From assembly GCA_965224245.1 (NCBI GenBank), contig OZ245046.1:3744001-3808000 (forward strand): DNA of 64,000 nucleotides, given 5' to 3'. Positions 12,786 to 63,892 of the stretch are shown here, in pieces; position 1 is the stretch's first letter; the number at the start of each line of letters is the position of its first letter. The notes beneath the pieces are model-generated. The model was not told the DNA's origin, did no database searches, and was given only the letters and a program-made list of their open reading frames with translations. Source of the DNA: Candidatus Eiseniibacteriota bacterium. Its GTDB lineage: Bacteria > Eisenbacteria > RBG-16-71-46 > CAZAMP01. The translations under genes and the position numbers were made by a program.

Positions 12786-13619
12786 ATGCCCTTCACTCGC
12801 ACCTCCGACGGCGTTCGACTCTTCTACGAGGTCACCGGCAGCGGCGAGACCGTCCTGTTCGCACACGCCTATCTCGGTCGGGCCGACGTGTGGGCCGGAC
12901 AGCGCATCGCGCTGGCCTCGCGCCTGCGGATCGCCGCGTTCGACGCGCGCGGACACGGCCGCTCCGACGCGCCCGACGACCCCGCGGCGTACAGCCTCAC
13001 GCGCTTCGTCGACGACCTGATCGACGTGCTGGACGCCCTCGAGGTCGAGTCCGCTCACCTGTGCGGGCTCAGCATGGGCGCGGAGACGGTCCTTCACGCG
13101 ATCCTGAGTCATCCGTCCCGCGTGAAGAGCGCCGTGCTGGCCGACGTCGGCACCGGCTCGGAGAACCCCGCGGGCATGCGGGCATGGGCCGACGAGATCG
13201 CCGAGTCGTTCCTGACGGTGGGGTCGGCGGGCACCTATCAGGCCATCCTGGCCGACACCGATCTCCTCGCGGGGCTCGGCATGACGCGCCGGAAGGCCGT
13301 GGAGGGAATGCGGCTCCTGGTCGAGAGCCAGTCCCCGCACGGCATGGCGTACACGATCCGGGGCGTGCTGGCCGACCGCGCGCCCATCTACGAGCTGGGC
13401 GACCGCCTCGCGACGGTGACCCAGCCCGTGCTCGTCATTCGCGGCGCGCTCGACACGCCGGTGGCCCGGCCGTCGCAGTTCCTCGTCGCGCATCTTCCGA
13501 ACGCGCGGGAGGTGGTGATCCCGGGCGTCTCACACGTCACGAACATCCAGGCCCCCGCCGACTTCAACCGCGCGCTGTCGGCGTTCCTCCGCGAGGTCAC
13601 GACCGCGCGACACGAATAG
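12786..13619 (+). CDS. Alpha/beta fold hydrolase
   Basis: 'FDARGHGRS', nucleophile elbow 'GLSMG', 'GALD', 'SHVTN'. Confidence 0.9.
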   Translation: MPFTRTSDGVRLFYEVTGSGETVLFAHAYLGRADVWAGQRIALASRLRIAAFDARGHGRSDAPDDPAAYSLTRFVDDLIDVLDALEVESAHLCGLSMGAETVLHAILSHPSRVKSAVLADVGTGSENPAGMRAWADEIAESFLTVGSAGTYQAILADTDLLAGLGMTRRKAVEGMRLLVESQSPHGMAYTIRGVLADRAPIYELGDRLATVTQPVLVIRGALDTPVARPSQFLVAHLPNAREVVIPGVSHVTNIQAPADFNRALSAFLREVTTARHE

Positions 13620-13648
13620 GACTCCCGCATGCTCGTCCGGCGCATCTC

Positions 13649-14842: not shown

Positions 14843-14877
14843 ACGACGCGGAAACCCACCGAGCGCACGCTCGCAGA

Positions 14878-28242: not shown

Positions 28243-29403
28243 TCACACGAGCTGATCGATCGAAGTCCACGGGATCGCTTGCACGCCCGGCGCCAGCCCC
28301 CCGCCGGGGACGGCGGACGTCACGGGTCGATGAACGACGGCAGCCGATACGTCGTACCGCTCCACCACCCTCGACAGCGTGGCGATCGGCTTCGCCATGC
28401 TCGGTGTCGGCGTCCGAGTCGCCTTCGCCTCGACAAGCGACAGCCCCGTCGCACCATGCGGGATCACGAAATCGACCTCGAGTCCCTGCCGGTCGCGAAA
28501 GTGGTAGATCGCCCGTGCCCGACCCGAGTGAATCTGCGATTTCACGATCTCCGACGCGACCAACCCCTCGAAGAGCGGCCCCAGGAACGGTGAGCGCTCG
28601 AGTATTTCATCCGAATCGATCCCGAGCAGGTGCGCGGCGAGGCCCGAGTCGGCGAAGTAGAGCTTGGGTGCTTTCGTGATTCGCTTGCCGAAGTTCTCGA
28701 AGAACGGCGGCACGACGATGATCTGCGCGGTGATCTCCAGCACGCCGATCCACTCGGAGATCGTCGGCACCGACACCCCGAGCGGACCGGCGAGTGCGGT
28801 CTTGTTCAACAGCTGCCCCATGCGGGTCGCGAGGAGCGCCAGGAACCGGCGAAACGTCGCCAGGTCCTTCACGGCGAGCACCGATCGGACGTCGCGCTCG
28901 AGGTAGGTCTGTACATAGGAGCGAAACCACAGATCGCGGGTGGACGGCCGTGCGATCACCTCCGGGTAGCCGCCCCCGAGGAGTGACACCCGCGGCTGTT
29001 CCGAATGTGAGAACGGCAAGAGCTGAAAGATCGCCGCCCTGCCGGCCATGGACTCCGAGACTCCCCTCATGAGGGCCGCCTCCTGCGACCCGGTGAGAAT
29101 CCACTCCCCGGTCGTCCCGGGCGATGCGTCGATCTCGCTCCGGATGTAGTTCAGAAGCTCGGGGGTGTTCTGGATCTCGTCCAGAATCACGGGACGGGAG
29201 AGCGCGTCGAGAAAGCTCCTCGGGTCACTCCGAACCCGGTCGACGACGTCGGGATCTTCGAGCAGCACGTAGTGAGCGCTCGGCAGGCAGTGCCGGAGGA
29301 GGGTCGTCTTTCCGGATCGCCGCGGACCCGTGACGATGAGCGCGGGGAAGCCGCCAAGTGCCCTTTGCAGCTCGAGTTCGAGGCGACGACGAATGTACTT
29401 CAT
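28243..29403 (-). CDS. AAA_14 ATPase with DUF4143 (PD-(D/E)xK-like) domain
   Basis: 'GPRRSGKTT', 'LDEIQ', 'LTGS', 'ESMAGR', 'GGYPE', 'KAPKLYFADSG', 'EVDFV...VEAK'. Confidence 0.92.
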   Translation of the reverse strand: MKYIRRRLELELQRALGGFPALIVTGPRRSGKTTLLRHCLPSAHYVLLEDPDVVDRVRSDPRSFLDALSRPVILDEIQNTPELLNYIRSEIDASPGTTGEWILTGSQEAALMRGVSESMAGRAAIFQLLPFSHSEQPRVSLLGGGYPEVIARPSTRDLWFRSYVQTYLERDVRSVLAVKDLATFRRFLALLATRMGQLLNKTALAGPLGVSVPTISEWIGVLEITAQIIVVPPFFENFGKRITKAPKLYFADSGLAAHLLGIDSDEILERSPFLGPLFEGLVASEIVKSQIHSGRARAIYHFRDRQGLEVDFVIPHGATGLSLVEAKATRTPTPSMAKPIATLSRVVERYDVSAAVVHRPVTSAVPGGGLAPGVQAIPWTSIDQLV

Positions 29404-45335: not shown

Positions 45336-46850
45336 TCAGTCGCGGAGCAGACGGTCGACCGGCGCGAAGTCGTCGGTCAGGGTGATCGCGTGGGGCCACG
45401 GCACCTCGCCGTCGTACACGCGGGCGGCCTCGTCGACGTACTGTGGTCTCGGGACGCGTCCAGCGTCGACGAGCGCCTGCGCGCGCGCGGTGAGCGCGTC
45501 GCGGTCCAGGTGGCGGGGCTCGGTGAGCCCGACCACGACCGTATTGCCCGACCAGTCACACAGGAAGAACGTGAACTCCCGGAATCCGGCCGCCGACATC
45601 GTCTTGACCAGCGCGAAGAGGAAGGCGCTGTCCGGCTCGTCGGCGGGCTCGATGACGTTGTACATCAGGACACCGCCGGGCGAGAGCCGCTCGCGCGCGA
45701 TCTCGAAGAACTCGCGCGTCGTCAGCTGAAACGGAATCGTGTTGCCGTAGCGGCCCGAGTTGTACGCATCGACCACGATGACGTCGAACGTGGACTCGGT
45801 GCTCCGGAGGTACGTACGTCCGTCCGCCACTTCCACGTCCAGCCGCGGCGAGACCGGAAGTCCGAAGAACCGCTCGGCCACGTCCACGACTGCGGGATCC
45901 ACATCCACCGCGTGCACCGTCACGTGGGGGTAGTCGGCCAGGAACTGCTTGGGGCCGGTCGCACCGCCGAGCCCGATGAAGAGGACGTCGTCGATCTCGT
46001 CGCGAAAGAGCCACGCCGAATGGAAGTGCTCGGTGTACTCGTATCCCCCGCTGGCCGGGTTGTCGATCAGCATGCGACTCTGGCGAGTGTCGTCGAACAT
46101 CAGGTGGCGGTATCGTCCGCGATCCACGACGCGAATGTGGTGATAGGCGCTGTCGTGCTCGTACCGGACCTCGCCGAGCGCCGCCGCCGGCCCCACGAGC
46201 GCCGCCGTCGCGGCGACCCCGAACAGGGCCATGAGGGCGACGCCGCGCCTCCGGTGGACGATCGCGGTCACGAGCCCCAGCGCGACCAGCGCGATGGCGA
46301 TCCCCCGGAGCGTGGTGCTGATCGCGACGTGCCCCAGGAGGTAGAACCCGGTGGTCAGCGTCCCCGCGATGCTCCCGAGCGTGGACAGCGCGGACATCCC
46401 GCCGGCCACGTGCCCGGCGCGCGCGACGTCGTGCGTGGACAGGCGGATCGCGATCGGCGTGACCGCGGCCAGGAGCGCCACCGGAAGCGCGAACAGCGCG
46501 ATCGTGGCCACGATCGCGTGAGTGGAGAGCGGCAGCCTCGACGTCGCGACCGCCTCGCTGAGCCCGAGCGAGACCACGGGCACGACGGCGATCAGGAGAC
46601 CGGCCACCAGCGGCGGCCCGGCCAGACTGGAGAGCGCCGGACGTCGATCGCCGAGGCGTCCTCCCAGCGCGTACCCGACGCTCATCGCGCCCAGGAACAC
46701 GGCGATGACCGCCGACGTCTCGCGGAGCGCGGTGCCGAACGTCCGGCCGATGATCCGGAAGGCGAGGACCTCGGTCGACATCAACGTGGCGCCGGCGACG
46801 AACACGACCAGCATCACGAGCGCACGCTGGACCACCGCCGGCCCGCTCAC
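45336..46850 (-). CDS. Fused MFS-like/spermidine synthase protein
   Basis: TM N-terminal half 'GYALGGRLGDR'; 'SAYHHIRV', 'IGLGG', 'DVDPAVV', 'DGR', 'VVDAY', 'LTDDFAPV'. Confidence 0.88.
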   Translation of the reverse strand: MSGPAVVQRALVMLVVFVAGATLMSTEVLAFRIIGRTFGTALRETSAVIAVFLGAMSVGYALGGRLGDRRPALSSLAGPPLVAGLLIAVVPVVSLGLSEAVATSRLPLSTHAIVATIALFALPVALLAAVTPIAIRLSTHDVARAGHVAGGMSALSTLGSIAGTLTTGFYLLGHVAISTTLRGIAIALVALGLVTAIVHRRRGVALMALFGVAATAALVGPAAALGEVRYEHDSAYHHIRVVDRGRYRHLMFDDTRQSRMLIDNPASGGYEYTEHFHSAWLFRDEIDDVLFIGLGGATGPKQFLADYPHVTVHAVDVDPAVVDVAERFFGLPVSPRLDVEVADGRTYLRSTESTFDVIVVDAYNSGRYGNTIPFQLTTREFFEIARERLSPGGVLMYNVIEPADEPDSAFLFALVKTMSAAGFREFTFFLCDWSGNTVVVGLTEPRHLDRDALTARAQALVDAGRVPRPQYVDEAARVYDGEVPWPHAITLTDDFAPVDRLLRD

Positions 46851-48901
46851 GTGAGCCGCACGCGGCCGATGACGGTCTCGGCGATCAGCAGGACGAACGC
46901 CGACATCAGGAGCTCCCGCCAGATCTCGCGCCCGTGGCGCGCCTCCAGCACGGCCTCGCGGATCGGCGTGTCGACGCCGAGGATCCGTACCCCATCGCCC
47001 CAGCGATCGGCGATCTCGCTCACGTCCCGATAGCGGAGATGCCCCTCGGCGCCGTCCAGGTGCACGGCCACCGATCGCAGCGGCTCGCCGTTCATCGTGA
47101 AGCGATAGACGCCCGGCACGTCGGTCGGGTCGGTCCGGACCACGACGCGACCCGATGCAACCTCGGTGCCCAGCGGCAGCTCGCGCCCCGACGGCGTCAG
47201 GCACTGGATGTCGCCGTCGAGGACGTCGGGATCGAACTGCAGCTCGATGGGCTCTCCGGCCCTGAACTGACGGGCGTCGACCGATCCCGAGGCCAGGGAC
47301 AGGATGCTCTGGTGGAGGAATGGGAGGAACGAGCCGCCGGTCGGGAAGTTGCCCCAGCGCAGGTCGGCCGACGAGGTGAACAGCAGGAACCGATCGGCCT
47401 CCACGACGGCCGGCAGCTCGCCGAACCGTGCCAGCACCCGATCGCCGTTCGAGACGCGTGTGCGCACGACCTTCGTGAAGCGGGCCCGCGTCAGCGCCTC
47501 GCCGTAGTCCACCGCGAACCCCTCGAAGAGGGGATGCCCCGGGACCTCGGGCTCCAGCGAGAAGAAGCTCCCGGGCACCGACTCGGGGTCCTCGAGCGTC
47601 ACGTGGCAGAAGCCGTCGAGGACGTTGGTGTTGTAGTAGCGAAGGTCGACGCGGTCTCCGAGAATCACGAAGACACCGGCACCGTCTCGGTGTGCGAGGC
47701 GCAGGCGCTCGAGCACGCCTTCGCTCAGGCGCTCGACGTTGTTGAGGACGAACACGTCGTAGTCCAGGTCGGCCTGCACCGAGAAGTCGCGAAGCGGGAT
47801 CTCCTGGACCGTGAACGTGCGCTCGCCGACCTGCCCCGGCGGATCCAGGGCCAGCCGCACGTAGGGCTCGCGCGCCACGTCGTCGGGCGTGCCGCCGTGC
47901 ACGAGGAGGACGCGAATCGTCTGGCGTTCGCTCGGGGTCACCCATGCCGCGTCATCGGCCGAGAGCGCGTCCTCGGAGATTTGAATCTGAAGCGCTTCTC
48001 CCGACGCCACCGATCGGTTGAGTGCGAGATCGGCGGTGGCCAGATCGGCGGCGGGAACGCGCACCGAGCCCTCCCCCACGAGGTCGTCGCCCGCGAACAC
48101 GCGTACCGGATAGTTCGAGAGCTCCCCGTCGGTGAAGTTGGCCAGGCTGACCCGTACCGCTCCCGAGGTCCCGCTCTGCACGCTCGCCTTCAGAAACGAG
48201 GCGCTGGTGACGGCCACGTTGGGCAAAGACGCCTCGTTCGCGACGGGCACGAGGTAGACCCGGACGTTCTCGGGCAGCTCGGGCAACGCATCCGGATCCC
48301 AGTCGTCCACCTGGAAATCGGATATCACGTAGATCTCGCGATTCAACGTGGACGACCCGGCCGCCCGGCGAGCCGCATCCTCGATGAACACGTCGACCGG
48401 GAGCGGGCGGTACGTGATCGGAGCCCGCTCGGCCCGGGCCATGACGCGCCCGAAGTCCTCGACCGGCGCATCGAACGCCGCGCGCGGGGGATCGGTCGGC
48501 CACACGAGCTGCGTCCGATCGCCTCGTCGGTGGAGCTCGCCGATCTCGGCCAGGCGGTGGCGCGCCACCTCCGCGTGCGACGCCGACTCGGTCGCGGCCT
48601 GCATGCTGAAGGACGTGTCCAGCGCGATCACGCCGGTCGTCGTCCCCGCACCGCTTCCGCCCGATCGCAGCGCCGGCCGCATCATCGCCCCCACCACCAG
48701 CGCGATGATCAGACAGCGCAACGCGAGCAGCAGCCACTGCCGGATCTGGATCCGGCGCCGCTGCCGCCGCGTGACCTCCTGCAGAAACTCCAGGCTCGAG
48801 AACGACTCGCGCCCGGAGCGGCGCCGATTCAGGAGGTGAATCAGGATCGGCAGCGAGACGGCTGCCATCGCGAAGCCGAAGATCGCGTTCAGAAACGTCA
48901 T
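46847..48901 (-). CDS. BatA (aerotolerance N-terminal) plus VWA domain membrane protein
   Basis: 'MTFLN...LPILIHLL...FSSL.FL...LLLALR', 'DTSFSM', 'ISDFQ', C-terminal TM. Confidence 0.88.
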   Translation of the reverse strand: MTFLNAIFGFAMAAVSLPILIHLLNRRRSGRESFSSLEFLQEVTRRQRRRIQIRQWLLLALRCLIIALVVGAMMRPALRSGGSGAGTTTGVIALDTSFSMQAATESASHAEVARHRLAEIGELHRRGDRTQLVWPTDPPRAAFDAPVEDFGRVMARAERAPITYRPLPVDVFIEDAARRAAGSSTLNREIYVISDFQVDDWDPDALPELPENVRVYLVPVANEASLPNVAVTSASFLKASVQSGTSGAVRVSLANFTDGELSNYPVRVFAGDDLVGEGSVRVPAADLATADLALNRSVASGEALQIQISEDALSADDAAWVTPSERQTIRVLLVHGGTPDDVAREPYVRLALDPPGQVGERTFTVQEIPLRDFSVQADLDYDVFVLNNVERLSEGVLERLRLAHRDGAGVFVILGDRVDLRYYNTNVLDGFCHVTLEDPESVPGSFFSLEPEVPGHPLFEGFAVDYGEALTRARFTKVVRTRVSNGDRVLARFGELPAVVEADRFLLFTSSADLRWGNFPTGGSFLPFLHQSILSLASGSVDARQFRAGEPIELQFDPDVLDGDIQCLTPSGRELPLGTEVASGRVVVRTDPTDVPGVYRFTMNGEPLRSVAVHLDGAEGHLRYRDVSEIADRWGDGVRILGVDTPIREAVLEARHGREIWRELLMSAFVLLIAETVIGRVRLT

Positions 48902-49797
48902 CAGTTGAGCCGGCTCCGCTTCTCGAGGTATCGAAAGAGCGCCAGATCGAACGGCGTCGACGTGCTGACGGCCACGTACTCGGCGCCCATCTCACCGCAC
49001 GCGCGGCGATAGCGCGTGGTCCAGGCGCGAAACCGCTCGAGGTAGTCGTCGCGGATCTCCCAGGCGTGCGTGGCCAGCCGCTGCCCGGTCTCCAGGTCCT
49101 CGAACTCGGTCTCGCCGCGGAACGGGAACGTCTCCTCGGCCTCGTCGAGCACGTGGAAGACGACCAGCTCGTGCCGCCCGTGGCGAAATCGCTCCAGCGA
49201 CGCGAGCACCTCGTCGGGCGAGTCCATCAGGTCGGAGAAGACCATCACCAGACCACGCCGGTGAATCCGCTCGGCCACCCGGCGCAGCGCCGGCGCGATC
49301 GACGTCCCGCGACCGGCCTCCGCTCGCTCGAGCTCGGCCAGGATCCGCCGCACGTGGACACCGGTCGAGCGCGCGGGCAGGAGTGTCTGGACGGTCTCGT
49401 CGAACATCATCAGTCCGACGGCGTCGTTCTGGGATTGCATCATGAACGCCAGCCCGCCGGCCAGCAGCGTCGCGTAGCGGAGCTTCGTGACCGCGCCCGC
49501 CGAGCGGTATCCCATGGAGGCGCTCGTGTCCACGATGAGCTGCGCGCGGAGGTTCGTCTCCTCCTCGAACTGCTTGATGTAGTAGCGATCGGTCTTCGCG
49601 TACAGCTTCCAGTCGACGAAGCGCGACGGCTCGCCGGTGTTGTAAGGGCGATGCTGGGCGAACTCCACGCTGAAGCCGTGATAGGGGCTCTTGTGGAGAC
49701 CGGTCAGGAACCCCTCGACCATGAGACGGGCGATCAGGTCCATTCCCGACAGCCGCGAGAGGAACGCCGGGTCGAGATAACTCGACGCCTCGGCCAC
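48901..49797 (-). CDS. DUF58 (VWA-like) protein
   Basis: 'GLHKSPYHGFSVEFAQHRPY', 'DWKLYAKTDRYYIKQFEEETN', 'DTSASM', 'FSDL'. Confidence 0.93.
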   Translation of the reverse strand: MAEASSYLDPAFLSRLSGMDLIARLMVEGFLTGLHKSPYHGFSVEFAQHRPYNTGEPSRFVDWKLYAKTDRYYIKQFEEETNLRAQLIVDTSASMGYRSAGAVTKLRYATLLAGGLAFMMQSQNDAVGLMMFDETVQTLLPARSTGVHVRRILAELERAEAGRGTSIAPALRRVAERIHRRGLVMVFSDLMDSPDEVLASLERFRHGRHELVVFHVLDEAEETFPFRGETEFEDLETGQRLATHAWEIRDDYLERFRAWTTRYRRACGEMGAEYVAVSTSTPFDLALFRYLEKRSRLN

Positions 49798-49798
49798 G

Positions 49799-50812
49799 TC
49801 AGCGCCCCCTGGCCGGCTCGGGCGCCACCTGCTCGACGAGCTGCGAGATCAGATCGTCGGGCGTGACCCGCTCCGCGTCCGCGTTGAAGTTCAGCACCAT
49901 CCGATGGCGCAGGACCGCCGGCGCGACCGCCTGGACATCCTCGTGATTGGGCTGGACGCTGCCCCGGAGCGCCGCGCGCGTCTTCGCGGCGAGCACGAGG
50001 TTCTGGCTGGCCCGCGGTCCGGCTCCCCACGACAGGTAGTTCCGGACCAGCTCGGGCGCGTCCGGTCCCGGACGCGTCGCTCCCACGAGCCGCACCGCGT
50101 ACTCGATCACGTAGTCCGACGCGGGCACCTTGCGCACGAGCGCCTGAAACTCCCGGATGTCCTGGGCGGCCAAGACCTTCTCGAGGGGCTCGGACGCCGG
50201 CCCGGTGGTGCGCCGGACGATCTCGACCTCGTCCCCGGGGCCGGGATAGTCGATCCGGATGTTCAGCATGAAGCGGTCGAGCTGAGCCTCGGGGAGGGGA
50301 TACGTTCCCTCCATCTCGATGGGGTTCTGCGTGGCCAGCACGAAGAACGGCAGGTCCAGATCGAACGTCTGGTTGCCGGCGGTGACCTGACGCTCCTGCA
50401 TCGCCTGCAATAGCGCGGCCTGCGTCTTCGGCGGCGTCCGGTTGATCTCGTCGGCGAGGATCACGTTCGCGAACACGGGCCCCTTGATGAACTTGAAGAC
50501 CCGGTGGCCCGTGCCGACCTCGTCCTCGAGAATCTCGGTGCCCGTGATGTCGGTCGGCATCAGATCCGGGGTGAACTGGATGCGGGAGAACTCGAGGTCC
50601 AGGACCTCGGCGACGCTGGAGATGAGCAGCGTCTTGGCCAGGCCGGGCACCCCCACCAGCAGGCAGTGTCCCCCGGCGAACAGGGCGACGAGCAGCTCGT
50701 CGACCACGGCTTCCTGACCGACGATCACCTTGCGGATCTCGGCTGAGATCCGCGCCCGGCCCTCGGCGAGGCGCGCGATGGCGCCGGCCGCTTCCTCGTT
50801 CGTGTAGCTCAT
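49799..50812 (-). CDS. moxR: MoxR-family AAA+ ATPase
   Basis: 'GVPGLAKT', 'RIQFTPDLMPTD', 'ADEINRTPPKTQAALL', 'ATQNPIE.EGTYPLPEAQLDRF'. Confidence 0.96.
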   Translation of the reverse strand: MSYTNEEAAGAIARLAEGRARISAEIRKVIVGQEAVVDELLVALFAGGHCLLVGVPGLAKTLLISSVAEVLDLEFSRIQFTPDLMPTDITGTEILEDEVGTGHRVFKFIKGPVFANVILADEINRTPPKTQAALLQAMQERQVTAGNQTFDLDLPFFVLATQNPIEMEGTYPLPEAQLDRFMLNIRIDYPGPGDEVEIVRRTTGPASEPLEKVLAAQDIREFQALVRKVPASDYVIEYAVRLVGATRPGPDAPELVRNYLSWGAGPRASQNLVLAAKTRAALRGSVQPNHEDVQAVAPAVLRHRMVLNFNADAERVTPDDLISQLVEQVAPEPARGR

Positions 50813-51047
50813 GTAACCTCCTGCCTCCCGTACCCGCAGCCGTCGCCGGGGTTCCCCGCGAAAACGCCAAACCCTAGCAGCTCTATTCGGTTACGGAAAG
50901 GCGCCGCTCGAGGGAGCCCGGATCGCCCGGTTGTCGACTTTTCGGAACTCCGGTATCCTCTTCCGCATTCCAAACGTGCCGGGTTGCGCGACTTTCGGCC
51001 GGCCTGCCTCCACGAGACGCTGCGCGCACAGAATTCAGGAGTTGCTC

Positions 51048-54662: not shown

Positions 54663-55309
54663 CGCGGACCGGCGACAGGTCCTCGCTCTTCCTCGAGCGC
54701 ATCGAGAACGGTCCGTTCTTCGTGAACACGTACCTCCTCGGCTGTCGCCGGAGCGGCGAGGCCGTCCTGATCGATCCCGGGCACGAGCAGGACCGCATCT
54801 CCCGGCGCATGACCGAGAGCAGGCTGCGCTACACCGCGATCGTGAACACGCACGGACACATCGACCACGTGGCCTCGGCCAGGCACTTCCAGGATGCGAT
54901 GGAGCTCCCCTTCTGCATGCACGCCGACGACCGGGTGTTCCTGGACGCCCTGGCCGACACGTGTGCGATGTATGGGCTGCCGCCGCTCGAGCCGCCGCGG
55001 CTGGATACCGAGCTGCGGGCCGGCGACACGTACACCGTGGGCGAGGTCTCGTTCACGCTCCGGCACGCGCCCGGGCACTCACCGGGCAGCCTGATCTTCG
55101 ATCTCGGCGAGACGATGATCGTGGGAGACGTGGTGTTTCAGGGATCGATCGGCCGGACGGATCTGCCGATGGGCGACACCGACACGCTTCTCGAGAGCAT
55201 CCGGCGCGAGGTGCTCACGAAGCCGGACGCCGTCACGCTGTGGCCCGGGCACGGTCCCGAGACGACCGTCGGGACCGAGCGCGCCCACAATCCCTTCCTC
55301 CTCGACTGA
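54659..55309 (+). CDS. Metallo-beta-lactamase-fold hydrolase, glyoxalase II/YcbL-like
   Basis: 'NTYL', 'LIDPG', 'THGHIDH', 'PGHSPGS', '[14 protein letters not shown]', 'PGHGP.TT'; ATGA overlap with BMC-T. Confidence 0.92.
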
Positions 55310-56573
55310 TCGCCCCCGGTCCGTCGATCACCTCGGTCCAGAGACGTTCGAGGGCCTCGAGGTGCGCGTCCGGGGTGTGCCGCGTCAGGACGCGATCGCG
55401 CGCGCGATGGCCGAGCCGCCGGGCCAGGAGCTCGTCGTCCGCCAGGCGCGCCAGCGCCTCGGCCAGGTCCGCGGGGACTCTCGCCCGACACAGGAGCCCC
55501 GTCTCCTCGTGCTCGACCAGCTCCGGCAGGCTGCCGAGGTCGTGTGCGACGACGGGCCGGCCGACCAGCATCGCCTCCAGCGCGACCAGCGGCAAGTTCT
55601 CGTAGCAGATCGACGGGACCACCACCGCCCGCGCGCGGCGCATGCGCGCGAGGATCTCGGGCCGATCGCGCCGCCCCAGGAAGCGGACGCGGTCCAGGTC
55701 CCGCGCGCGGTCGACGAGGGCACGTGCCTCGGGCGCGTCGGTCTGGCCGACGATCTCCAGCACGCCCGGTGAGCCGGCCCGCACGAACGCGTCGATCAGC
55801 CGATCCACCCCCTTCTCCGGCGACAGACGACCGGCGTACACGAACGTCGGCTCCCGTCCGGTGTCGGCGATCGAGGGAGCGGCGTCGATCGCGCGGGGAT
55901 CGATGAAGCTCGGGACGTGCACGATCCGCGACGGATCGAGCCCGCCCTCGATCATCTTGTAGCGGAGAAACGCCGACGGCGCGACGAACCGCGCGATCGA
56001 GTCGTGTAGCCGCAGCCGATCGTGCACGGCCATGCCGGCCACCCGCGCCAGCGACACCGCGGCGGACGCGTGCAGGCAACGCTTGCGAACCGCGTGCAGG
56101 CGACTCCCCCCGAGACAGCGCTCGCATGCGCGCTCGCCGTCGAAGAAGAGATAGCACGGCGCGATCAGATGGAAGTCCGAGAGACGCATGACCACCGGCA
56201 CCCCCGCGTCTCGACACGCGTGGAAGATGCTCGGCGAGAGGACGTTCGCGGCGACGATCACGTACACGACGTCCGGCCGGACGTCACGCAGCAGCGCGGT
56301 CAGGCGGCGCCGGGCCTCCATCGAGTACACCGACCGGGCGAGCAGACGCGCCCTGGCCACCGGTCCCCGCACGTCGCGGAGGTACACCGCGTCCGCGTCG
56401 CCCGGTGGCGGAACGAAGTAGGGCTCGTACTCCGACGGCTCGTTCTGGGCGTAGCGAACCGCGAACGGGATCACGTCGTGCCCGTGCTCCTCCAGGAGCG
56501 CCTTCACGTCGAACAGATAGCGCTCGGGGCCGCCGGTCACGTGGTAGCGGTTGTTGACGAGGACTACCCGCAT
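55233..56573 (-). CDS. Glycosyltransferase family 4
   Basis: 'GGPERY', 'GRLSPEKG', 'PSICYENLPLVALEAM', 'GSLPELV'. Confidence 0.92.
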   Translation of the reverse strand: MRVVLVNNRYHVTGGPERYLFDVKALLEEHGHDVIPFAVRYAQNEPSEYEPYFVPPPGDADAVYLRDVRGPVARARLLARSVYSMEARRRLTALLRDVRPDVVYVIVAANVLSPSIFHACRDAGVPVVMRLSDFHLIAPCYLFFDGERACERCLGGSRLHAVRKRCLHASAAVSLARVAGMAVHDRLRLHDSIARFVAPSAFLRYKMIEGGLDPSRIVHVPSFIDPRAIDAAPSIADTGREPTFVYAGRLSPEKGVDRLIDAFVRAGSPGVLEIVGQTDAPEARALVDRARDLDRVRFLGRRDRPEILARMRRARAVVVPSICYENLPLVALEAMLVGRPVVAHDLGSLPELVEHEETGLLCRARVPADLAEALARLADDELLARRLGHRARDRVLTRHTPDAHLEALERLWTEVIDGPGAISRGGRDCGRARSRRSSRDRARATA

Positions 56574-57826
56574 GTTCCCGTTCGCTCGATCCGGTCACGC
56601 CGGCGAGCGGCCGGGTGACGAGCGGTGAGCCATGCATCGACGAGCGATTCCGTCTCGGCAACCATGCGCCGGAGCGCGAACCGGGACGCGGCCACACGGG
56701 CCGCGTTCTCGCCCAGGCGACGCGCCAGCTCGGGCGTCGCGAGCACCCGCTCCATCGCGTCGGCCAGCTCGCGCGGACGGCGGCACGGGACGACCAGGCC
56801 GGTCATGCCGTGCGTGATCAGCTCGGCGCTGCCGCCCGCGTCGGTCGTGACCACCGGCACCGCCAGCGACATGGCCTCCATCAGGAAGTTCGAGCATCCC
56901 TCCCGCTCGCACGAGGGGAGAACGGCCAGATCGCTGGCGCACAGGAGGTCGGCCACGTCGGATCGATGACCCAGAAACCGCACCTGCGTCCCCAGCCCCA
57001 GCCGATCCGCCGCCATCCGGAGCGACGCCTCCAGGGGACCGGTGCCGGCCAGGAGCACCATCGGCCGTACGTCCAGGTCGGCCAGGCGGACCAGTGCCGC
57101 GAGGAGACCCGCATGATCCTTCTTCGGTGTCAGGCTCGCGGCGACCAGCACGACCGGAACGCCCGGCGCGGCGCCCAGCTCGGCCCGGACGACGCCGCGC
57201 GGCCGCCCCGGCGGGGGCCAGTTCGAGGGCAACGCGTTGTAGACGACGTGTGCGTCGGGACGCCGGACACCCCGGCGCCGGAGAAGCTCCAGACCGGCCT
57301 CGGAGTTCGCGACGACGCCGTCGCATCGATCGAGAAGCCGCGACTCGGCCGCGACGAGGAGCCGATGGAGCAGCGAACGCGCCCGGTACGCCGATCCCCG
57401 CTCCGACCCCACCACCACCGGAACGCGGGCCAGCCGGGCCGCCGTGAGGCCGAAGCAGACCCCCGGGGTCAGCCAGCCGTGTACCACGTCGGCTCCTCTC
57501 AGACACGAGACCAGGCGCGGCACGAACGCGACGTCGAAGCGACCGCGGCGACCCACACACGTCACGTGGATGCCCGCGTCGCGAAGCTCGTCCGCGAGAG
57601 CGCCCTCCGCCGAGTCCAGCGTGACGATCGCGGGTGCGAAGCGATCCCGGTCCAGTGCAATCGCGAGCCGGGTCAGCTGACGCTCCGCTCCCCCGCCGCC
57701 GAGCGCGTTCGTGACGAAGACGACGCGCGCGGGACGCCCGAGCGGCGGATCCGGCTCCGGGGTGCGGGTTGCCCGCCACGGCGTCGGGCGGAGCTGCCGC
57801 GCCATCGGACGGAGGTTCGAGATCAC
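56564..57826 (-). CDS. Glycosyltransferase family 4
   Basis: 'GGGGAERQL', 'KKDH', 'FLGHRSDV', 'EGCSNFLMEAM'; start at the GTGA overlap (57826) or ATG 57805. Confidence 0.9.
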   Translation of the reverse strand: MISNLRPMARQLRPTPWRATRTPEPDPPLGRPARVVFVTNALGGGGAERQLTRLAIALDRDRFAPAIVTLDSAEGALADELRDAGIHVTCVGRRGRFDVAFVPRLVSCLRGADVVHGWLTPGVCFGLTAARLARVPVVVGSERGSAYRARSLLHRLLVAAESRLLDRCDGVVANSEAGLELLRRRGVRRPDAHVVYNALPSNWPPPGRPRGVVRAELGAAPGVPVVLVAASLTPKKDHAGLLAALVRLADLDVRPMVLLAGTGPLEASLRMAADRLGLGTQVRFLGHRSDVADLLCASDLAVLPSCEREGCSNFLMEAMSLAVPVVTTDAGGSAELITHGMTGLVVPCRRPRELADAMERVLATPELARRLGENAARVAASRFALRRMVAETESLVDAWLTARHPAARRRDRIERTGTCG

Positions 57827-58887
57827 GATGCTCTCGCCGCGGTGGCCGTCCCCGGGGCGTCCGCGGCCGCCGGACGCGACCCGGGCCGGTAGGCCCGCAC
57901 CACGGACACCGCCGCGGCGGCGAGCATGCCCAGCACGAACGCTCCCAGGGCGCTGCGCGTGCGCATCGGCCCCGCCTTGAACACCGGTGGCACCGCCGGG
58001 TCGAGCACGACGAGCTCGGGCTGGTGATAGGCTTCGTCGATCTTGGCCAGCTCGTACTGCCTGGTGAGCGTGAGGAAGATCTCCTCCTGGATGCGTGCGT
58101 CGCGCAGGAGACGCCCCTCGCGCAGGAGCAGCTCGGGAGACTTGTTGATGCGGACGTTCTGCGCCCGGAACGCTTTCAGCGCCTCCTCGGCCGCGCGGAG
58201 GCGGGTGCGCGTGGAGTCCATCCGGGTCTCGATGAATGCGCGCGTGGAGGCGGCCTCCTCGGTGCTCTGCATGCGCCGAACACGCTCGGCCTCGGCCACG
58301 ATCGCGTTGGCGATGCCCGCGGCGGTCTCGGGACTTCGATGGCGGACCGTCACCGTCCAGATACCGGTGCGGGAATCCGAGTCGGTCCGGATGCTCTCGT
58401 GTAGCCACGCGAGCGCCGAGGCCCGCCCTTGCGCCGGCGTCTTCGCGTCGGCGCGAAACAGAGAATCCAGGGGCGCGTGCATCCCGAGTCTCGGCTGGAA
58501 GAACGGTCGCGCGAGCACGTGCTCGAGCACGCGCCGGCTCGTCACGACGGTCGCGTAGGCCGATGCGCCGTCCCGGCCCGGTAGCGAGATGCCGACCGCC
58601 TGTGCGAGGTCGGTGGCCTTGCCGAGGTCCATCGCCCTCGCCCCCCCGGCCTCGTTCGGCATCAGCGTGACGGACGCGTCGTAGACGTTGGGAATCATCA
58701 GGGACACCCCGGCCGCGACGCCGGCGGCCAGGAGCCCCGTCGCCACGATCAGCCGCAGGTGGCGCCGCAGGATCCGGGTCACCTCCGGCACGTCGATGCC
58801 GAGCGACCACGCGTCGTCGATCCCGCCCTGCCCGTCGGTGCCCGGGATCGCGATCGGGACCGGCGGTCTCCGCTCTCCATGGGACAT
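57823..58887 (-). CDS. Wzz/GNVR polysaccharide chain-length determinant (PCP)
   Basis: N- and C-terminal TM, 'PNVYDAS', coiled coil, 'QYELAKIDEA...VLDPAVPP..KAGP'. Confidence 0.88.
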   Translation of the reverse strand: MSHGERRPPVPIAIPGTDGQGGIDDAWSLGIDVPEVTRILRRHLRLIVATGLLAAGVAAGVSLMIPNVYDASVTLMPNEAGGARAMDLGKATDLAQAVGISLPGRDGASAYATVVTSRRVLEHVLARPFFQPRLGMHAPLDSLFRADAKTPAQGRASALAWLHESIRTDSDSRTGIWTVTVRHRSPETAAGIANAIVAEAERVRRMQSTEEAASTRAFIETRMDSTRTRLRAAEEALKAFRAQNVRINKSPELLLREGRLLRDARIQEEIFLTLTRQYELAKIDEAYHQPELVVLDPAVPPVFKAGPMRTRSALGAFVLGMLAAAAVSVVRAYRPGSRPAAADAPGTATAARAS

Positions 58888-61800
58888 CTACTTCGTGACC
58901 TCGTTGATGAGAAAGATCGTCGTTGCCGCGCCGGAGAGGACGCTGATGACGTCGGCGACGTCTCTCCAGCGACTGCCGTGCGGCGACTCGATCTTGCGGG
59001 GAACCACGATCGTCGTGCCCGGATCCACAGTTGGCCCGTGACGGAGAAAGCCGCCGGTTCCGTGGTCGACGCTTCCGTTGGCACGCTGAACGAGAATGCG
59101 GTCGCCGTCCGCGAACTCGGTGAGCCCGCCGGCGTGCCGGAGGTAGTACTTCACGCCCTCGCCGGCCCGGAAGATCACGCTCGTGGGAAAGCCGACCTCC
59201 CCCACGACCTTGACCGTCTGCGGCGCCTCGGGGATCCGGAGCGCGTCACCGTCCACCAGCGTCAGATCCTCGGGGCCGCCGGGCTCGGCCAGGGCCCGGG
59301 CCAGATCGATTCCGATGCGACCGGCCTCGTTCTGCTCGCGCGTGAAGATGGCCGCCCGCACGTACGCACCCTCGAGCAGACCGCCGGCTCGCTCGATCAG
59401 CTCGGAGAGCGTCTCCCCGGGGCGCGAGAGGCTGTACACGCCGGGGAATCGGACCTCGCCGGTGATGCTGACGTTCTGCTGGCGCTCCCAGCCCGCGCGC
59501 TCGCGCACGTAAACGACGTCGTTTCGGACCAGCATGAACCCTGGTGCCTCGCCGCGACCGTCGTCCCAGCCGAGGACGTCGACCCGGTACACGTCGGACC
59601 GCCGGCGCTCGGCCGACGCGGTGGTGTCCATGCGCGCGACCTCCACGAACCGATCGTACGCGGTCTCACGAAGCCCCCCCGCCATCCGGACCAGATCCGC
59701 GAGCGACGTGCCGCGCGGCAGCGCGTACCGGCCGGGGGCGCGAACCGGCCCCACGATGCGCACCGAGTCGCGCTCGACGAAGTCCCACTGGGAGCGAACC
59801 GTGACGTGATCCCGATCCGCGAGCGCCATGTGCATGTCGGTGTCGTCCCCGAGATCGACCCTCATGATCGCCTCGCGTCGATCGGGATCGCGCCGGACGA
59901 GCTGTACGTCGTGCGTCCGGGCATCCGGGCGCAGCCCGCCCGCCTGGCCGATCGCGGTCCCGAGCGTCATCCCCGATCGCCACGCGACGCGCCCGGGGCG
60001 TCGCACCCCGCGTCCGGTCACCTCGACGTAGCGACCGGTCTCCTCGAGCACCGCGTCGATCGTGATCTGATCACCGTCCCGGAGGGGGAACGGCACCACG
60101 CCGAGGAGCTCGTTCCGCCCGACCGTCTTCAGCTCCCAGCCATAGTCGCGCTCGCCGGTGGCGACGTCGCCCCGAGCCACCCGGCGCACGTTCGCCCGCT
60201 CGAGATAGGCCTCGGCGGTGAGCCCGCCGGCCGCGGCCAGCACGTCGGCGAGCCCCTCGCCCGCCCGCACCTCGTACACCGCCTCTCGAAAGACCTCGCC
60301 GGCCACCCGCACGCGCGCGCCGGCGGTCGGAACGTGTATCGCATCTCCCGACGCGAGCCCCACGTCGTGCGACAGATCACCGGCGAGGAGCACGCGGTAG
60401 AGATCGACCGTGGCCACCGCGCGGCCGTCACGCACGACCTCGATCGCGCGCAGCGTGCCGCTCTCGCGCGGACCTCCGGCGCGGAACAGCACGTCGAGCA
60501 CCGACGCGGTGGCGGTCACGCGATACGCGCCGGGGCGGCCGACCTCTCCGAGCACGAACACCTGGATCGTGCGGACCCTGGCCACCGACAGGTCGAACCA
60601 CGTCGTCGGATCGGCGCCGTCGCGTCCACGAAGCCCCGAGTACACGTCGGCGAGACGGATCTCGAGCTCGTGCTCGAGCACGTCGAGGGCGCGCCCCGCC
60701 ACCGCCACCAGCCCGACGTCCTTGATGAACACGCGCCCTTCGCGATCGACGGGGAGGGTCTCGACGAGCTCGGTGTCGCCCCATACGGTCAGGACCAGCT
60801 CGTCCCCGGGCCCCACGAGGTAGTCGGGTGGAACCCGTCCCCAGTCGAGCGGCGCGAAGCCGTCGGGGGAATCGGTGAAGAGGTCGTAGCCGAACGGGGT
60901 CAGCGCCGTGCTGTCGCGGCGCGCTCCGATCGCGTCGGGATCACGCACCGGCGGCGGGGTCGGGGCCAGCTCGGCGTCGCCGAGCCCCACACCGGACGCG
61001 GACGAGCGGGCACGATCCCGGAGGGAATCCAGCGTCGCACGACGCGCGCTGGACAGCGCGTCCTGGATCGCCCGCGCCTCGACCTCGTCGATGCGGCCGA
61101 CCGAGCCGACCGCGTGGCGGCGCAGCTGCTCGACCTCCGAGTGGCTGAGATCCTGAGCGTGCGACGACCCGAGCGTGGTCAGGAGCGCGGCCGACACGAC
61201 GGCGACGAGTGCCGCCGCGCGCGAGCCCCGGGCCGGCCACGATCGAGACCGGAGCCGACGCACGGCGCCACGCACGGCCGACGGCGTCGCCGCCTCCATC
61301 GCGTCGAGATCGCGATCGGAGAGACGGCCGAGGAGCCGCACCACCGACACGCCGCCGGCGAGCGCCGATGCCAGCAGCACCGGGATCGGGCTCTCGACGA
61401 GCAGCGAGAGCGCCAGCGCCGGGATCAGCGCCGCGCCCACGCGAGCCGCCACCGACGCCGCGAATCGCCAGTCCACGTCGCCGTCACAGATCCGACGGGC
61501 CAGGAGCCGCCCCAGCCCCGTCATCATCAGACCGGCCGCCACGCGGGCACCCGCGATACCCACGAGACCGAACAGGTTCCCGAGCACGAAGACCATCCCC
61601 AGGTTCGTGAGACTGCCCCAGAGCTCCAGGCGAACGGTCTGGCCGGGTGGGGCGGCGACGTAGACGACGCCACCGAGGAGCGCGTGGAGGGCATACAGCG
61701 TCGCGGCCAGGCAGAGCACCGCGAGCACCGGCGCGGCGGCCGGATACCGGCCACCGCCGATCACGTCGACGAGCGAGCCCGACGCGACCGCGATCGACGC

Positions 61801-62733
61801 CGCCAGCGGAACCGTGCCCAGGAGCACGAACCGGGAGCTGCGGCGAAGCGCTGCGCCGATCCGATCGCGCCCGAGCGCCTTCACCGCCGACAGCTTCGGC
61901 AGGAGCGGCGAGACGAGCGCATCGATCACGACCGTCACGTAGTTGAAGAACCGGCACGCCAGGTAGTACGCGGCGAGCGATGCGGGTCCGAGGAGAATGC
62001 CGACCACGAGCTTGTCGGCGTGCATGCTGCCCAGCCGCAGGAATCCGTTCAGGTAGAACGGCAGCGCCAGCCGACCGATCGACTCGACGTCGGGCCGCCG
62101 CGCGGGACCGATCAAGAGCCGCCGGTGCCAGAACGCGAGACCCAGCGTCAGGAAGAGCTCGCCGATCGCGTACGCGAGCACCATCTCCTCGAACCGACCG
62201 GTCCACAGCAGCGTGGCGAGCGCGAGCGCGCGAAGCGGTAGATCGTGCACGATGCGCATCACGCTGACGCTCGCGATCCGATCGAGAGCCGAGACGACGA
62301 GGAGTGACTGCTCGTAGAGACGACCGCTCACCACCGCGAGTGCGAGCGCACGCACGAGCGGCGCATGATCGGGTGAGCGGAGAAAGAGCGCGGCCACGGG
62401 CTCGGGCCGGACGACGAGCACGGCCACCAGCGGTACGAGCGCGAGCGACGGGAGCACGAGCGTTCGTCGAGCGACCCAGCGTGCGCTGGGGGCGTCGCCC
62501 CGCGCCATCGCCGGGGGACCCAGCTGGTACAGCACGCCCACCAGCCCGAACGCCGACACGGTGCCGGTCAGGGCCAGAAACGGCTCCAGGAGCGCCCACG
62601 CGGCCAGCTCGAGCGGGCTGACCCGGCGCGTCAGCACGGCCAGCCAGGTGACGCCGGCGACGGCCATGATTCCCTGAGCCGAGAGAAGCCCCGCGCTGTC
62701 GCGGATCGCGCGAGTGGCTCGGTTGGCATCCAC
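58888..62733 (-). CDS. Fusion ORF: Wzx-like flippase (about aa 1-490) plus SLBB-repeat OPX polysaccharide export protein
   Basis: Flippase 'ADKLVVGILLGPASLAAYYLA'; OPX 'FGYDLF...DYLVGPGDEL...VDREG', six 'V.V.GEV..PG.Y'-type SLBB repeats, C-terminal amphipathic helix; no stop between the halves. Confidence 0.85.
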   Translation of the reverse strand: MDANRATRAIRDSAGLLSAQGIMAVAGVTWLAVLTRRVSPLELAAWALLEPFLALTGTVSAFGLVGVLYQLGPPAMARGDAPSARWVARRTLVLPSLALVPLVAVLVVRPEPVAALFLRSPDHAPLVRALALAVVSGRLYEQSLLVVSALDRIASVSVMRIVHDLPLRALALATLLWTGRFEEMVLAYAIGELFLTLGLAFWHRRLLIGPARRPDVESIGRLALPFYLNGFLRLGSMHADKLVVGILLGPASLAAYYLACRFFNYVTVVIDALVSPLLPKLSAVKALGRDRIGAALRRSSRFVLLGTVPLAASIAVASGSLVDVIGGGRYPAAAPVLAVLCLAATLYALHALLGGVVYVAAPPGQTVRLELWGSLTNLGMVFVLGNLFGLVGIAGARVAAGLMMTGLGRLLARRICDGDVDWRFAASVAARVGAALIPALALSLLVESPIPVLLASALAGGVSVVRLLGRLSDRDLDAMEAATPSAVRGAVRRLRSRSWPARGSRAAALVAVVSAALLTTLGSSHAQDLSHSEVEQLRRHAVGSVGRIDEVEARAIQDALSSARRATLDSLRDRARSSASGVGLGDAELAPTPPPVRDPDAIGARRDSTALTPFGYDLFTDSPDGFAPLDWGRVPPDYLVGPGDELVLTVWGDTELVETLPVDREGRVFIKDVGLVAVAGRALDVLEHELEIRLADVYSGLRGRDGADPTTWFDLSVARVRTIQVFVLGEVGRPGAYRVTATASVLDVLFRAGGPRESGTLRAIEVVRDGRAVATVDLYRVLLAGDLSHDVGLASGDAIHVPTAGARVRVAGEVFREAVYEVRAGEGLADVLAAAGGLTAEAYLERANVRRVARGDVATGERDYGWELKTVGRNELLGVVPFPLRDGDQITIDAVLEETGRYVEVTGRGVRRPGRVAWRSGMTLGTAIGQAGGLRPDARTHDVQLVRRDPDRREAIMRVDLGDDTDMHMALADRDHVTVRSQWDFVERDSVRIVGPVRAPGRYALPRGTSLADLVRMAGGLRETAYDRFVEVARMDTTASAERRRSDVYRVDVLGWDDGRGEAPGFMLVRNDVVYVRERAGWERQQNVSITGEVRFPGVYSLSRPGETLSELIERAGGLLEGAYVRAAIFTREQNEAGRIGIDLARALAEPGGPEDLTLVDGDALRIPEAPQTVKVVGEVGFPTSVIFRAGEGVKYYLRHAGGLTEFADGDRILVQRANGSVDHGTGGFLRHGPTVDPGTTIVVPRKIESPHGSRWRDVADVISVLSGAATTIFLINEVTK

Positions 62734-62743
62734 CGCCGTGCCC

Positions 62744-63892
62744 CTAGCGAGCGAGACCGGCGGCGGGGGCCTCGACCAGCGGCCGCACGATCGTGAGGAG
62801 CTCGTGCATCTGGATCGCGGTTCCCACCGTGATCCGGAGGCAGCCCGACAGCCCCGCCAGGTGAGCCAGGTTCCGCACGAAGACGTTCTTTCCCCGGAGC
62901 GCCTCGCTCAACGACGCCGGATCGTCGGGGCGGATGATCATGAAGTTGGCCGGGGTCGGATGGCACTGGATGCCGATCTCGGTGAGCCCCTTCTCGAGCT
63001 CACTCATGCCCCAGCGCACGTCGGCGCAGTACTCGCGGACGTCCTGATACGCGTCGAGGGCGGCCACCGCGGCCACCTGACCCAGCGCGTTGACGCTCTT
63101 GCCGACGCGAATGCGAGCGAGCACGTCGACGATCGTCGGGTGGGCGACCACGTAGCCGATCCGGAATCCCGCGAGACCGAAGGCCTTGGAGAACGTGCGG
63201 GTCACGAGGAGATTCGGATGCGCGCGCACGAGATCGATCACCGAGCGTTCGGAGTACTCGTGGTACGCCTCGTCCACGACCACGAGCGAGGAGCGATGCC
63301 GCGAGGCGAGGCGGCGAATCACCGTGTCGTCGTACTCGGTGCCGGTCGGGTTGTTCGGGCTCCCCAGGTAGATCAGCCGCGACCCGGGGACGATCGCGTC
63401 CAGCTCGGCCAGGTCCGGATCCAGGGGCGACGTGTAGGTGAAGGCCTCGACGTGCGCGCCGGCGGCCTCGGCGTAGACGCGGAAGTTGTCGTACGTCGGG
63501 GACACGGTGGTCACCCGTGCGCCCGGCTCCAGGTAGGCCCGGGTCACGTACTCCAGCGCGCTGTCGGATCCGGCGAACGTCAGAATGGACTCCGTCGGCA
63601 GACCCGTGTACCCCGACAGCGCGGTCGTCAGCGTCGTCGCGGCCACGTCCGGATACCAGTTGAGCGGTCGCCCCTCGAGAAACCGGCGCACCTCGTGGAT
63701 GACGAGGGCCGGCGGGGACACCGTCGACTCGTTCCAGTCGAGCTTCATCGCGCGCGCCGGATCGACCAGCGAAAGCGCCTCCTGGCTCACGACGGGATAG
63801 GGCCGGATTGCCTCGACCCACGGCGTCGCGGGAATGCGTCCGTCGAGCGGGTCACGAATGGACTTCGCGGTCACCATGATCTCCCAGGCCAT
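62744..63892 (-). CDS. HisC/CobD-like class I/II PLP-dependent enzyme (start may be ATG 63877)
   Basis: 'KLDWNES', 'PNNPTG', 'VDEAY', 'RTFSKAFGLAGFRIG', 'LRITVG'. Confidence 0.88.
   Translation of the reverse strand: MAWEIMVTAKSIRDPLDGRIPATPWVEAIRPYPVVSQEALSLVDPARAMKLDWNESTVSPPALVIHEVRRFLEGRPLNWYPDVAATTLTTALSGYTGLPTESILTFAGSDSALEYVTRAYLEPGARVTTVSPTYDNFRVYAEAAGAHVEAFTYTSPLDPDLAELDAIVPGSRLIYLGSPNNPTGTEYDDTVIRRLASRHRSSLVVVDEAYHEYSERSVIDLVRAHPNLLVTRTFSKAFGLAGFRIGYVVAHPTIVDVLARIRVGKSVNALGQVAAVAALDAYQDVREYCADVRWGMSELEKGLTEIGIQCHPTPANFMIIRPDDPASLSEALRGKNVFVRNLAHLAGLSGCLRITVGTAIQMHELLTIVRPLVEAPAAGLAR

Follow-up and report, generated by a model that had tools for sequence, protein, structure and literature searches.

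A flippase and a polysaccharide exporter joined in one reading frame at an internal signal peptide in a Candidatus Eiseniibacteriota bacterium

The fused reading frame and its two halves

A single open reading frame (ORF) on the minus strand of a 64,000 nucleotide (nt) stretch of DNA from a Candidatus Eiseniibacteriota bacterium (contig OZ245046.1; the whole stretch is called the window below) encodes a MOP/Wzx-type flippase and a Wza-type exporter of the OPX family in one polypeptide. This fused wzx-opx ORF occupies 58888..62733 and comprises 1,281 codons plus a TAG stop codon, with a GTG start, as seen from the ORF list, the translation, the Pfam matches and the G+C content of third codon positions (GC3). 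An earlier note, made from the letters of the DNA, had proposed a single frame of this length that unites two protein families, and both parts of that proposal hold: no stop codon interrupts the translation, Pfam finds flippase and Poly_export/SLBB families in the same frame, and GC3 is of the coding type throughout. It amounts to 0.88 overall and to 0.72–0.93 in each window of 40 codons, and the windows that span the junction of the two halves (codons 461–560) have values of 0.80–0.93, with no change of frame to be seen. The G+C content around the ORF is about 70–75%, and opposite to it lies an antisense "shadow" ORF of 1,160 codons (58759..62241, plus strand), which is typical of DNA with 72% G+C. 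Because of this base composition and the long antisense ORF, the length of a reading frame is weak evidence here, and the coding status of the fused frame was therefore judged from the Pfam matches and GC3.

The start codon GTG 62733 is backed by residues 5–21, which align with the N-termini of the nearest stand-alone flippase (P0031) and of a second fused protein (P0180), both described below. The public gene call of the locus (P0002, 1,259 residues) begins at ATG 62667, 22 codons downstream; owing to the two alignments, GTG 62733 is favored over this ATG. The matches of the fused protein in NCBIfam, among them PEP-CTERM exporter, EpsE and MOP flippase, all score far short of the curated cut-offs, and the protein therefore does not qualify as equivalog of any named system.

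The first half of the protein (residues 1–505) is a flippase. Its core, residues 1–468 (61330..62733, minus strand), has about 14 transmembrane helices and was identified by Pfam, an AlphaFold2 (AF2) model and Foldseek. Polysacc_synt_3 (PF13440) matches residues 97–333 with 46.1 bits, above its cut-off of 23, while Polysacc_synt (PF01943; residues 12–282, 26.6 bits) and the MurJ model (17.7 bits) remain below their cut-offs of 28.2 and 27.4, respectively, with weaker Polysacc_synt/MurJ matches within residues 12–447. The NCBIfam model for MOP flippases, PRK10459, scores 22.9 against a cut-off of 273. In the AF2 model of residues 1–640, built from a 20-row alignment, the predicted local distance difference test score (pLDDT) exceeds 90 from residue 20 to about residue 470. 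With this model as query, Foldseek retrieved MurJ with a probability of 1.00 over 473–526 columns and a target TM-score of 0.71–0.79; the top MurJ structure is 7waw (E 2.6e-7, 504 columns), and WzxE 9g9p matches over 418 columns, again with a probability of 1.00. Both by family model and by fold, this half belongs to the MOP flippase superfamily. The number of 14 helices was read from the DSSP string, with the helix at residues 363–415 split by hand at its Gly-rich middle. The MOP fold is built from two six-helix bundles, to which MurJ-like members add two further helices, and in proteins of this family both termini are cytoplasmic. The distribution of charges agrees with cytoplasmic N- and C-ends of the flippase half, since in the 14-helix reading the cytoplasmic loops contain 20 Lys/Arg residues and the periplasmic loops 4. 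The core is followed by an Arg-rich cytoplasmic tail, residues 469–505 (61219..61329, minus strand; nine Lys/Arg residues), which aligns with the C-terminal tail of P0031. A search of the ESM Atlas, which omits clusters of fewer than 50 members, with the flippase returned solely clusters of flippases of 477–507 residues, with scores of 0.86, below the 0.9 line. These look-alikes, all scoring below 0.9, are most common in Bacteroidota.

The second half, residues 527–1281, is an OPX protein. Its N-terminal region, residues 527–610 (60904..61155, minus strand), is drawn by AF2 as two helices (531–543 and 550–579) followed by a Pro-rich linker of low confidence (residues 577–608). At E-values up to 5, no Pfam family covers this region or the junction. 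The Poly_export (PES) domain (PF02563) follows at residues 634–698 (60640..60834, minus strand; 52.5 bits, cut-off 28), and a stack of six SLBB domains occupies about residues 700–1250 (58984..60636, minus strand). In Pfam, SLBB matches six stretches with 186 bits and SLBB_2 four, and the AF2 pLDDT of the stack is mostly above 90. The protein ends in a helix, residues 1254–1280 (58894..58974, minus strand; pLDDT 52–61), possibly a Wza_C-like helix that spans the outer membrane. In this region 18 of 28 columns (64%) are identical to P0180, while Pfam Wza_C was not detected in the last 103 residues at E-values up to 5. The AF2 model of residues 527–1281, built from a 36-row alignment, has a mean pLDDT of 83 and consists of the N-terminal helices, the linker, Poly_export, a string of beta-grasp domains and the final helix of 27 residues. 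The OPX half matches Wza (2j58) by fold (E 7.6e-18) as well as by sequence (residues 637–843, E 1e-12). According to PMC9603273, Class 1 OPX proteins have an N-terminal Poly_export domain, 1–14 SLBB domains and a C-terminal Wza_C helix. Poly_export is present in the fused protein and its six SLBB domains lie within the range; as Pfam does not detect Wza_C, membership of its OPX half in Class 1 in this sense is only suggested.

Both halves are much as the earlier note had drawn them, that is, a multi-helix Wzx/MOP flippase of about 490 residues with a hydrophilic tail, confirmed by Pfam, AF2 and Foldseek, followed by a complete OPX protein with the PES motif, six SLBB repeats and a C-terminal helix, the last of these taken from the low-confidence part of the AF2 model and the rest from Pfam. 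As a side observation, a helical motif, x-G-[LM]-[ST]-x-x-[EQ]-[VI]-x-x-R-L, follows the OPX signal peptide once in this protein (within about 60904–61155) and apparently twice in more distant OPX relatives; it corresponds to no Pfam family.

The junction, its relatives and the gene neighborhood

The two halves are joined by an internal signal peptide (61156..61218, minus strand) with a hydrophobic region (h-region) at residues 506–522 and a cleavage region (c-region) at residues 523–526 (S-S-H-A). The basic n-region that belongs to it is the Arg-rich tail of the flippase. The predicted site of signal peptidase I lies at nt 61156/61155, between the codons of A526 (61158–61156) and Q527 (61155–61153); this codon mapping places the S-H-A|Q motif exactly where the earlier note had put it, and the string quoted there for the junction corresponds to residues 491–529. 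Simple rules, together with an own heuristic, served to judge the anatomy of the signal peptide. By these rules, the segment consists of a basic n-region and a hydrophobic h-region, with a small residue at both −3 and −1 (S/A here, A/A in P0180) and no Pro at +1. It is internal rather than N-terminal, as it starts at about residue 488–506 of 1,281, after 14 helices. The uncharged span is 22 residues long in this protein and 17 in P0180, inside the range of 14–30 seen for 32 stand-alone relatives, whose median is 18.5. Ahead of the c-region, both fused proteins have an invariant Leu-Gly pair (L521, G522). The first 40 residues past the hydrophobic segment contain seven Asp/Glu and four Lys/Arg residues, and pLDDT drops below 50 at residues 522–529.

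Comparison with stand-alone proteins shows what the fusion has removed. The nearest stand-alone flippase, P0031 (502 residues), is 46% identical to residues 4–497, colinear from end to end, and it ends where the Arg-rich tail of the fused protein ends. The nearest stand-alone OPX protein, P0033 (773 residues), is 52% identical and likewise colinear from end to end; its HMMER match (51%) pairs residues 524–759 of the query with its residues 23–252. The N-terminal signal peptide of P0033 ends in A-P-A|Q, with A25 and Q26 aligned with A526 and Q527. The signal peptide that had been postulated at the junction is therefore not only borne out in its anatomy but homologous to the N-terminal one of P0033. 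Altogether, the fused protein retains the flippase as far as, essentially, the natural C-terminus, and the OPX protein beginning with the h-region; what is missing in comparison with separate genes is a stop codon, a spacer, a start codon and a few codons of the n-region. A junction of the frameshift type was considered and rejected, because the homologies to flippases and OPX proteins are in the same frame and only about eight residues apart.

To find out how widespread the fusion is, residues 1–760 were compared by HMMER with 1.84 billion cluster representatives, which gave 6,885 matches at E-values up to 0.001. Among the 150 matches listed, the only fused protein is that of the window itself; the other 149, judged from positions and lengths, leave no space for a flippase ahead of the OPX match, the offset being 291 residues at most. 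A second fused protein, P0180, came to light in a word-index search that was scored on the flippase part and covered proteins of 704–2,242 residues. It has 1,271 residues, is encoded on a 13,975-bp contig from a different source, contains the Pfam families of flippase and OPX, and is colinear with the window protein from the first to the last residue, at 56% identity on the protein level. Broken down by region, the flippase core is 51% identical, the tail 30%, the segment with the hydrophobic stretch and the cleavage site 43%, and the OPX domains 60%. At its junction, a basic stretch is followed by a hydrophobic stretch of 15 residues with Pro-Leu-Gly and then by A-L-A|Q. Presumably P0180 is missing among the listed HMMER matches because it shares a 50% cluster with the window protein. 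The earlier note had named, as an observation that would speak against the fusion, that all relatives have two separate genes; with P0180 this no longer applies. No third fusion was retrieved with a profile of the two fused proteins, which had three matches at E-values up to 1e-10, namely both fused proteins and one OPX-only protein, and a word-index search with residues 380–700 gave 29 matches, of which 28 are OPX-only. On the DNA level, no relatives were found in 185,579 species genomes with either the whole protein or the two-row alignment as query. The fusion is thus real but rare.

Two trees agree on the history of the halves. In the flippase tree (IQ-TREE, 20 flippases) the fused pair are sisters (support 99/94), joined next by the unfused P0031 (99/97). 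In the OPX tree, a quick run with 16 proteins that took in 14 of the 34 stand-alone OPX rows, the fused pair are again sisters (SH-aLRT 99), followed by the unfused P0033 (100). Because of this agreement and the alignment of the P0033 signal peptide, the junction is read as the retained signal peptide of a single old fusion. The simplest reading of the sequences is indeed that one old fusion occurred and was retained since. The end branches of the fused proteins amount to 0.41–0.64 changes per column, so that the fusion has persisted while the sequences diverged considerably.

The residue after the cleavage site deserves a separate remark. Of the 34 stand-alone OPX proteins examined, two lack an N-terminal hydrophobic stretch; 30 of the remaining 32 have a small-x-small|Q site, and no other residue follows such a site in more than 12 of the 32 (own heuristic). 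By the same heuristic, Gln follows 35 of 137 candidate sites, compared with 53 of 573 background residues, and both fused proteins keep Gln at +1. A "Q-rule" for substrates of signal peptidase I has been described for Bacteroidetes (PMC5837995). That the stand-alone OPX family appears to follow this rule hints at an origin of the family in the Fibrobacteres-Chlorobi-Bacteroidetes (FCB) group. For the organism itself, about two small-x-small|Q sites were noticed by eye among the few secreted-looking proteins of the window.

The fused gene is part of a tightly packed operon on the minus strand that consists of an aminotransferase, the fusion, a Wzz/GNVR protein and two GT4 glycosyltransferases. 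The class I/II aminotransferase (62744..63892) has its stop codon 10 nt upstream of the GTG start of the fused gene. Downstream, the Wzz/GNVR polysaccharide co-polymerase (57823..58887; 354 residues, no kinase domain) starts with ATG 58887, directly adjacent to the TAG of the fusion at 58890–58888, which is the TAGATG arrangement that the earlier note had reported. The first GT4 gene (56564..57826) starts at GTG 57826, overlapping the wzz stop codon (GTGA), or at ATG 57805, 21 nt further on, and the second one lies at 55233..56573. This gene context, with Wzz, two GT4 genes and the aminotransferase, suggests that the fused flippase may flip repeat units linked to undecaprenyl pyrophosphate. 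No other flippase, other OPX protein, Wzy or priming transferase was recognized among the ORFs of the window that were scanned; the cluster may continue past base 64000. Rfam had no match, rRNA included, in the whole window.

Three further loci of the window are recorded here. At 12743–18444, a 699-residue D12 N6-adenine methyltransferase (PADLOC MTase_II, 3e-47) is convergent with a 1,188-residue SMC/AAA_27-like ATPase that has weak PADLOC matches to mad3 (3.4e-12) and GajA/LmuB, confined to its N-terminal P-loop; this region may be a defence island. An AAA_14 + DUF4143 protein at 28243–29403 (minus strand) matches the PADLOC candidate system PDC-S01 (4e-99), and an operon of the aerotolerance type, with a MoxR AAA ATPase, DUF58/VWA and BatA, is located at 46847–50890 (minus strand).

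Fate of the fusion protein

The findings above fit a genuine fusion of adjacent wzx and opx genes, one for a MOP flippase and one for a Wza-type exporter, in a cluster of the Wzx/Wzy type, and we regard it as probable, though by no means certain, that signal peptidase I cleaves the product after A526. The fusion removed the stop codon of the flippase as well as the start codon and the short n-region of the exporter, so that the Arg-rich tail of the flippase now runs into the original h-region and A-x-A|Q site of the exporter. The flippase with its 14 helices would be inserted co-translationally with both ends in the cytoplasm. As both of its ends are cytoplasmic, the following hydrophobic segment is expected to meet the translocon with its N-terminus inside and its C-terminus outside. 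Residues 506–522 could in this way enter the Sec translocon like an N-terminal signal peptide, while the 755 residues of the OPX half would be threaded into the periplasm. Cleavage by signal peptidase I after A526 would yield a flippase of 55.0 kDa with a pI of 11 and one extra C-terminal helix, and an OPX protein of 81.7 kDa with a pI of 5.3 and an N-terminal Gln. The released OPX protein may then oligomerize under and in the outer membrane, above the neighboring co-polymerase of the Wzz type. What is observed is a single frame with intact domains, a conserved fusion, a junction that is homologous to a signal peptide, and a topology that fits; cleavage is what we infer from them, and so is any advantage, for instance obligatory co-expression or joint targeting. 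The interpretation given in the earlier note is thus partly supported, with the fusion and the signal peptide origin of the junction established and the cut itself predicted.

Several points weigh against this picture. With its 17 residues, the h-region is rather long for that of a signal peptide that is cleaved, and AF2 draws a continuous helix from residue 499 to residue 528. The fused sequences found in this lineage number only two, and therefore conservation of the A-x-A|Q site could reflect inheritance instead of selection; the site is also conserved in the unfused P0033. Furthermore, in-frame start codons are present upstream of the hydrophobic segment. Production of both halves in a 1:1 ratio, finally, would be an odd match for an octameric exporter and a presumably low-copy flippase, as Wza of E. 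coli is an octamer.

The foremost alternative is that the fusion protein remains uncut. The hydrophobic segment would then be a fifteenth transmembrane helix and the OPX half would be tethered to the flippase, a covalent link from the inner to the outer membrane. The length of the h-region and its place inside the one long helix of the model would suit such an anchor. In the stack of Wza (2J58), the Poly_export base points toward the inner membrane. The roughly 100 N-terminal residues of the OPX half, 30 of which belong to the low-confidence linker, make a tether geometrically possible, and the seven stacked domains could span the periplasm. Moreover, OPX domains joined to another inner-membrane part do occur, as rows of Table S3 of PMC9603273 include at least three Wzz-Poly_export fusions. 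However, both fused proteins keep small residues at −3 and −1, the Leu-Gly pair and Gln at +1, none of which is needed by a pure anchor; the hydrophobic stretch of P0180, with its 15 residues and its Pro, is short for a stable anchor; and the unfused P0033 likewise has the N-terminal helices and the linker, which are therefore not specific to the fusion. Taken together, we regard the uncut form as rather unlikely. If it did exist, each OPX subunit would be tied to a flippase of its own, and a ring of flippases beneath the channel might couple flipping, polymerization and export in one trans-envelope machine, a picture to which we give only modest credence. In a milder version, the protein is cut and the fusion may be a "Rosetta stone" of a direct partnership between Wzx and OPX.

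A second alternative is that the OPX protein is made mainly by separate internal initiation and that the fusion product is incidental. Three in-frame candidate starts (61261..61299, minus strand) precede the hydrophobic segment by 15–27 codons, namely ATG 61299 (M479), GTG 61275 (V487) and GTG 61263 (V491), and initiation at V491 would produce a textbook pre-protein. The earlier note had discounted an internal start since it saw no well-spaced ribosome-binding site. The observation stands, because no Shine-Dalgarno match was found at 3–13 nt from any of the three and the sole GGAGG (61297–61293) lies 17 nt before GTG 61275. The argument built on it is weak, however, because many likely starts of the window lack such a match as well, including the start of the fused gene itself (62733) and the GT4 start at 56573, and the missing motif at the junction therefore says little about internal initiation. 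Three other points speak against this alternative. Since no stop codon intervenes, translation that begins at 62733 yields the fusion protein in any case; Met479 is not conserved, with Val at the aligned column of P0180; and retention of the fusion in two lineages would be left unexplained. We therefore rate internal initiation as the main source of OPX as improbable, and more so than the uncut form.

Lastly, it is very unlikely that two genes which are separate in the organism were joined by an error of sequencing or assembly, or by a recent mutation that inactivates them. In favor of this reading one can cite that no close relative for a comparison on the DNA level was found in the 185,579 species genomes. 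Against it, the same fusion, at 56% identity, occurs in an independent protein of different origin; homology to flippases extends to about residue 497 and the h-region begins at residue 506 of one and the same frame, which leaves no space for a stop codon, a spacer and a start codon; GC3 shows no change of frame; and both halves are modeled at high confidence.

Comparison with known systems

Capsules, O-antigens and the polysaccharides of biofilms are products of Wzx/Wzy pathways, and how the steps at the inner membrane are linked to the exit through the outer membrane is still being worked out. A fusion kept in two lineages at 56% identity would mean that flippase and exporter belong together more closely than in the textbook scheme. 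It also provides a natural bacterial system for testing whether signal peptidase cuts at a signal peptide that lies inside the chain, behind a membrane domain of 14 helices. If the protein remains uncleaved, it would represent a new kind of covalent connection between inner and outer membrane; if close packing of the genes produced the fusion by neutral chance only, it would be a curiosity.

The domain combination is on record but has not been studied. Rows of Table S3 of PMC9603273 (2022) contain at least three Oligoflexia entries with flippase and OPX families in one protein, among them MBF0314258.1 (835 residues) and MBF0365693.1 (837 residues), both from "Oligoflexia bacterium". As far as these table rows go, the order of families is the same as in the fused protein described here, which adds to the case for closeness of flippase and exporter, whereas the Oligoflexia proteins are about 450 residues shorter, have two SLBB domains and a detectable Wza_C, and belong to another lineage. 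Proteins of 835 or 837 residues do not occur among the 150 HMMER matches listed; distant fusions would fall below the listed scores. The tables of PMC9603273 for 3,662 representative genomes and for myxobacteria contain neither flippase-OPX nor Wzz-Poly_export fusions, and in term searches of its main text "fusion" is absent and "fused" occurs twice, in other contexts, so that the Oligoflexia fusions are not discussed there under these terms. A full-text literature search found no paper that discusses a Wzx-OPX fusion. What the present analysis adds is to show that a signal peptide has survived as the junction and that two diverged lineages have both retained the fusion. OPX proteins fused to a partner from the inner membrane appear to be a recurring, rare theme, judging from the rows of Table S3. 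That parts of Wzx/Wzy systems do fuse is also exemplified by Wzc of the PCP-2a type (polysaccharide co-polymerase, PCP, with a tyrosine kinase) and by Wzz-Poly_export, but no flippase is involved in either (PMC12819527, PMC9603273). The interactions listed as shown by experiment in the introduction of PMC12819527 are flippase with PCP, polymerase with PCP, and PCP with polysaccharide; a contact between Wzx and OPX is not among them.

In comparison with systems in which Wzx and the OPX protein are separate (Wza 2J58; WzxE 9G9P; MurJ as the 14-helix model of the MOP fold), the families and folds are the same, and the gene neighborhood, with a Wzz-type co-polymerase and GT4 genes, is typical of standard Wzx/Wzy clusters. 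The difference is that both proteins are here part of one polypeptide, whereas P0031 and P0033, each of which is sister to the two fused proteins in the respective tree, are separate proteins, with a stop codon of its own in the one case and a start codon and n-region of its own in the other. The OPX half also differs from Wza in having six SLBB domains instead of two, in a C-terminal helix that is missed by Pfam Wza_C, and in lacking a lipobox Cys after the signal peptide, in contrast to Wza, which is a lipoprotein. An analogue of the proposed mechanism is the cytochrome b-c1 polyprotein FbcH of Bradyrhizobium japonicum, in which a periplasmic protein reportedly follows a polytopic protein of the inner membrane in frame and signal peptidase cleaves at the internal signal peptide between them, so that one gene yields two proteins (work of Thony-Meyer, James and Hennecke, PNAS 1991). 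The families and the pathway are unrelated, but processing of the flippase-exporter fusion would follow the same route.

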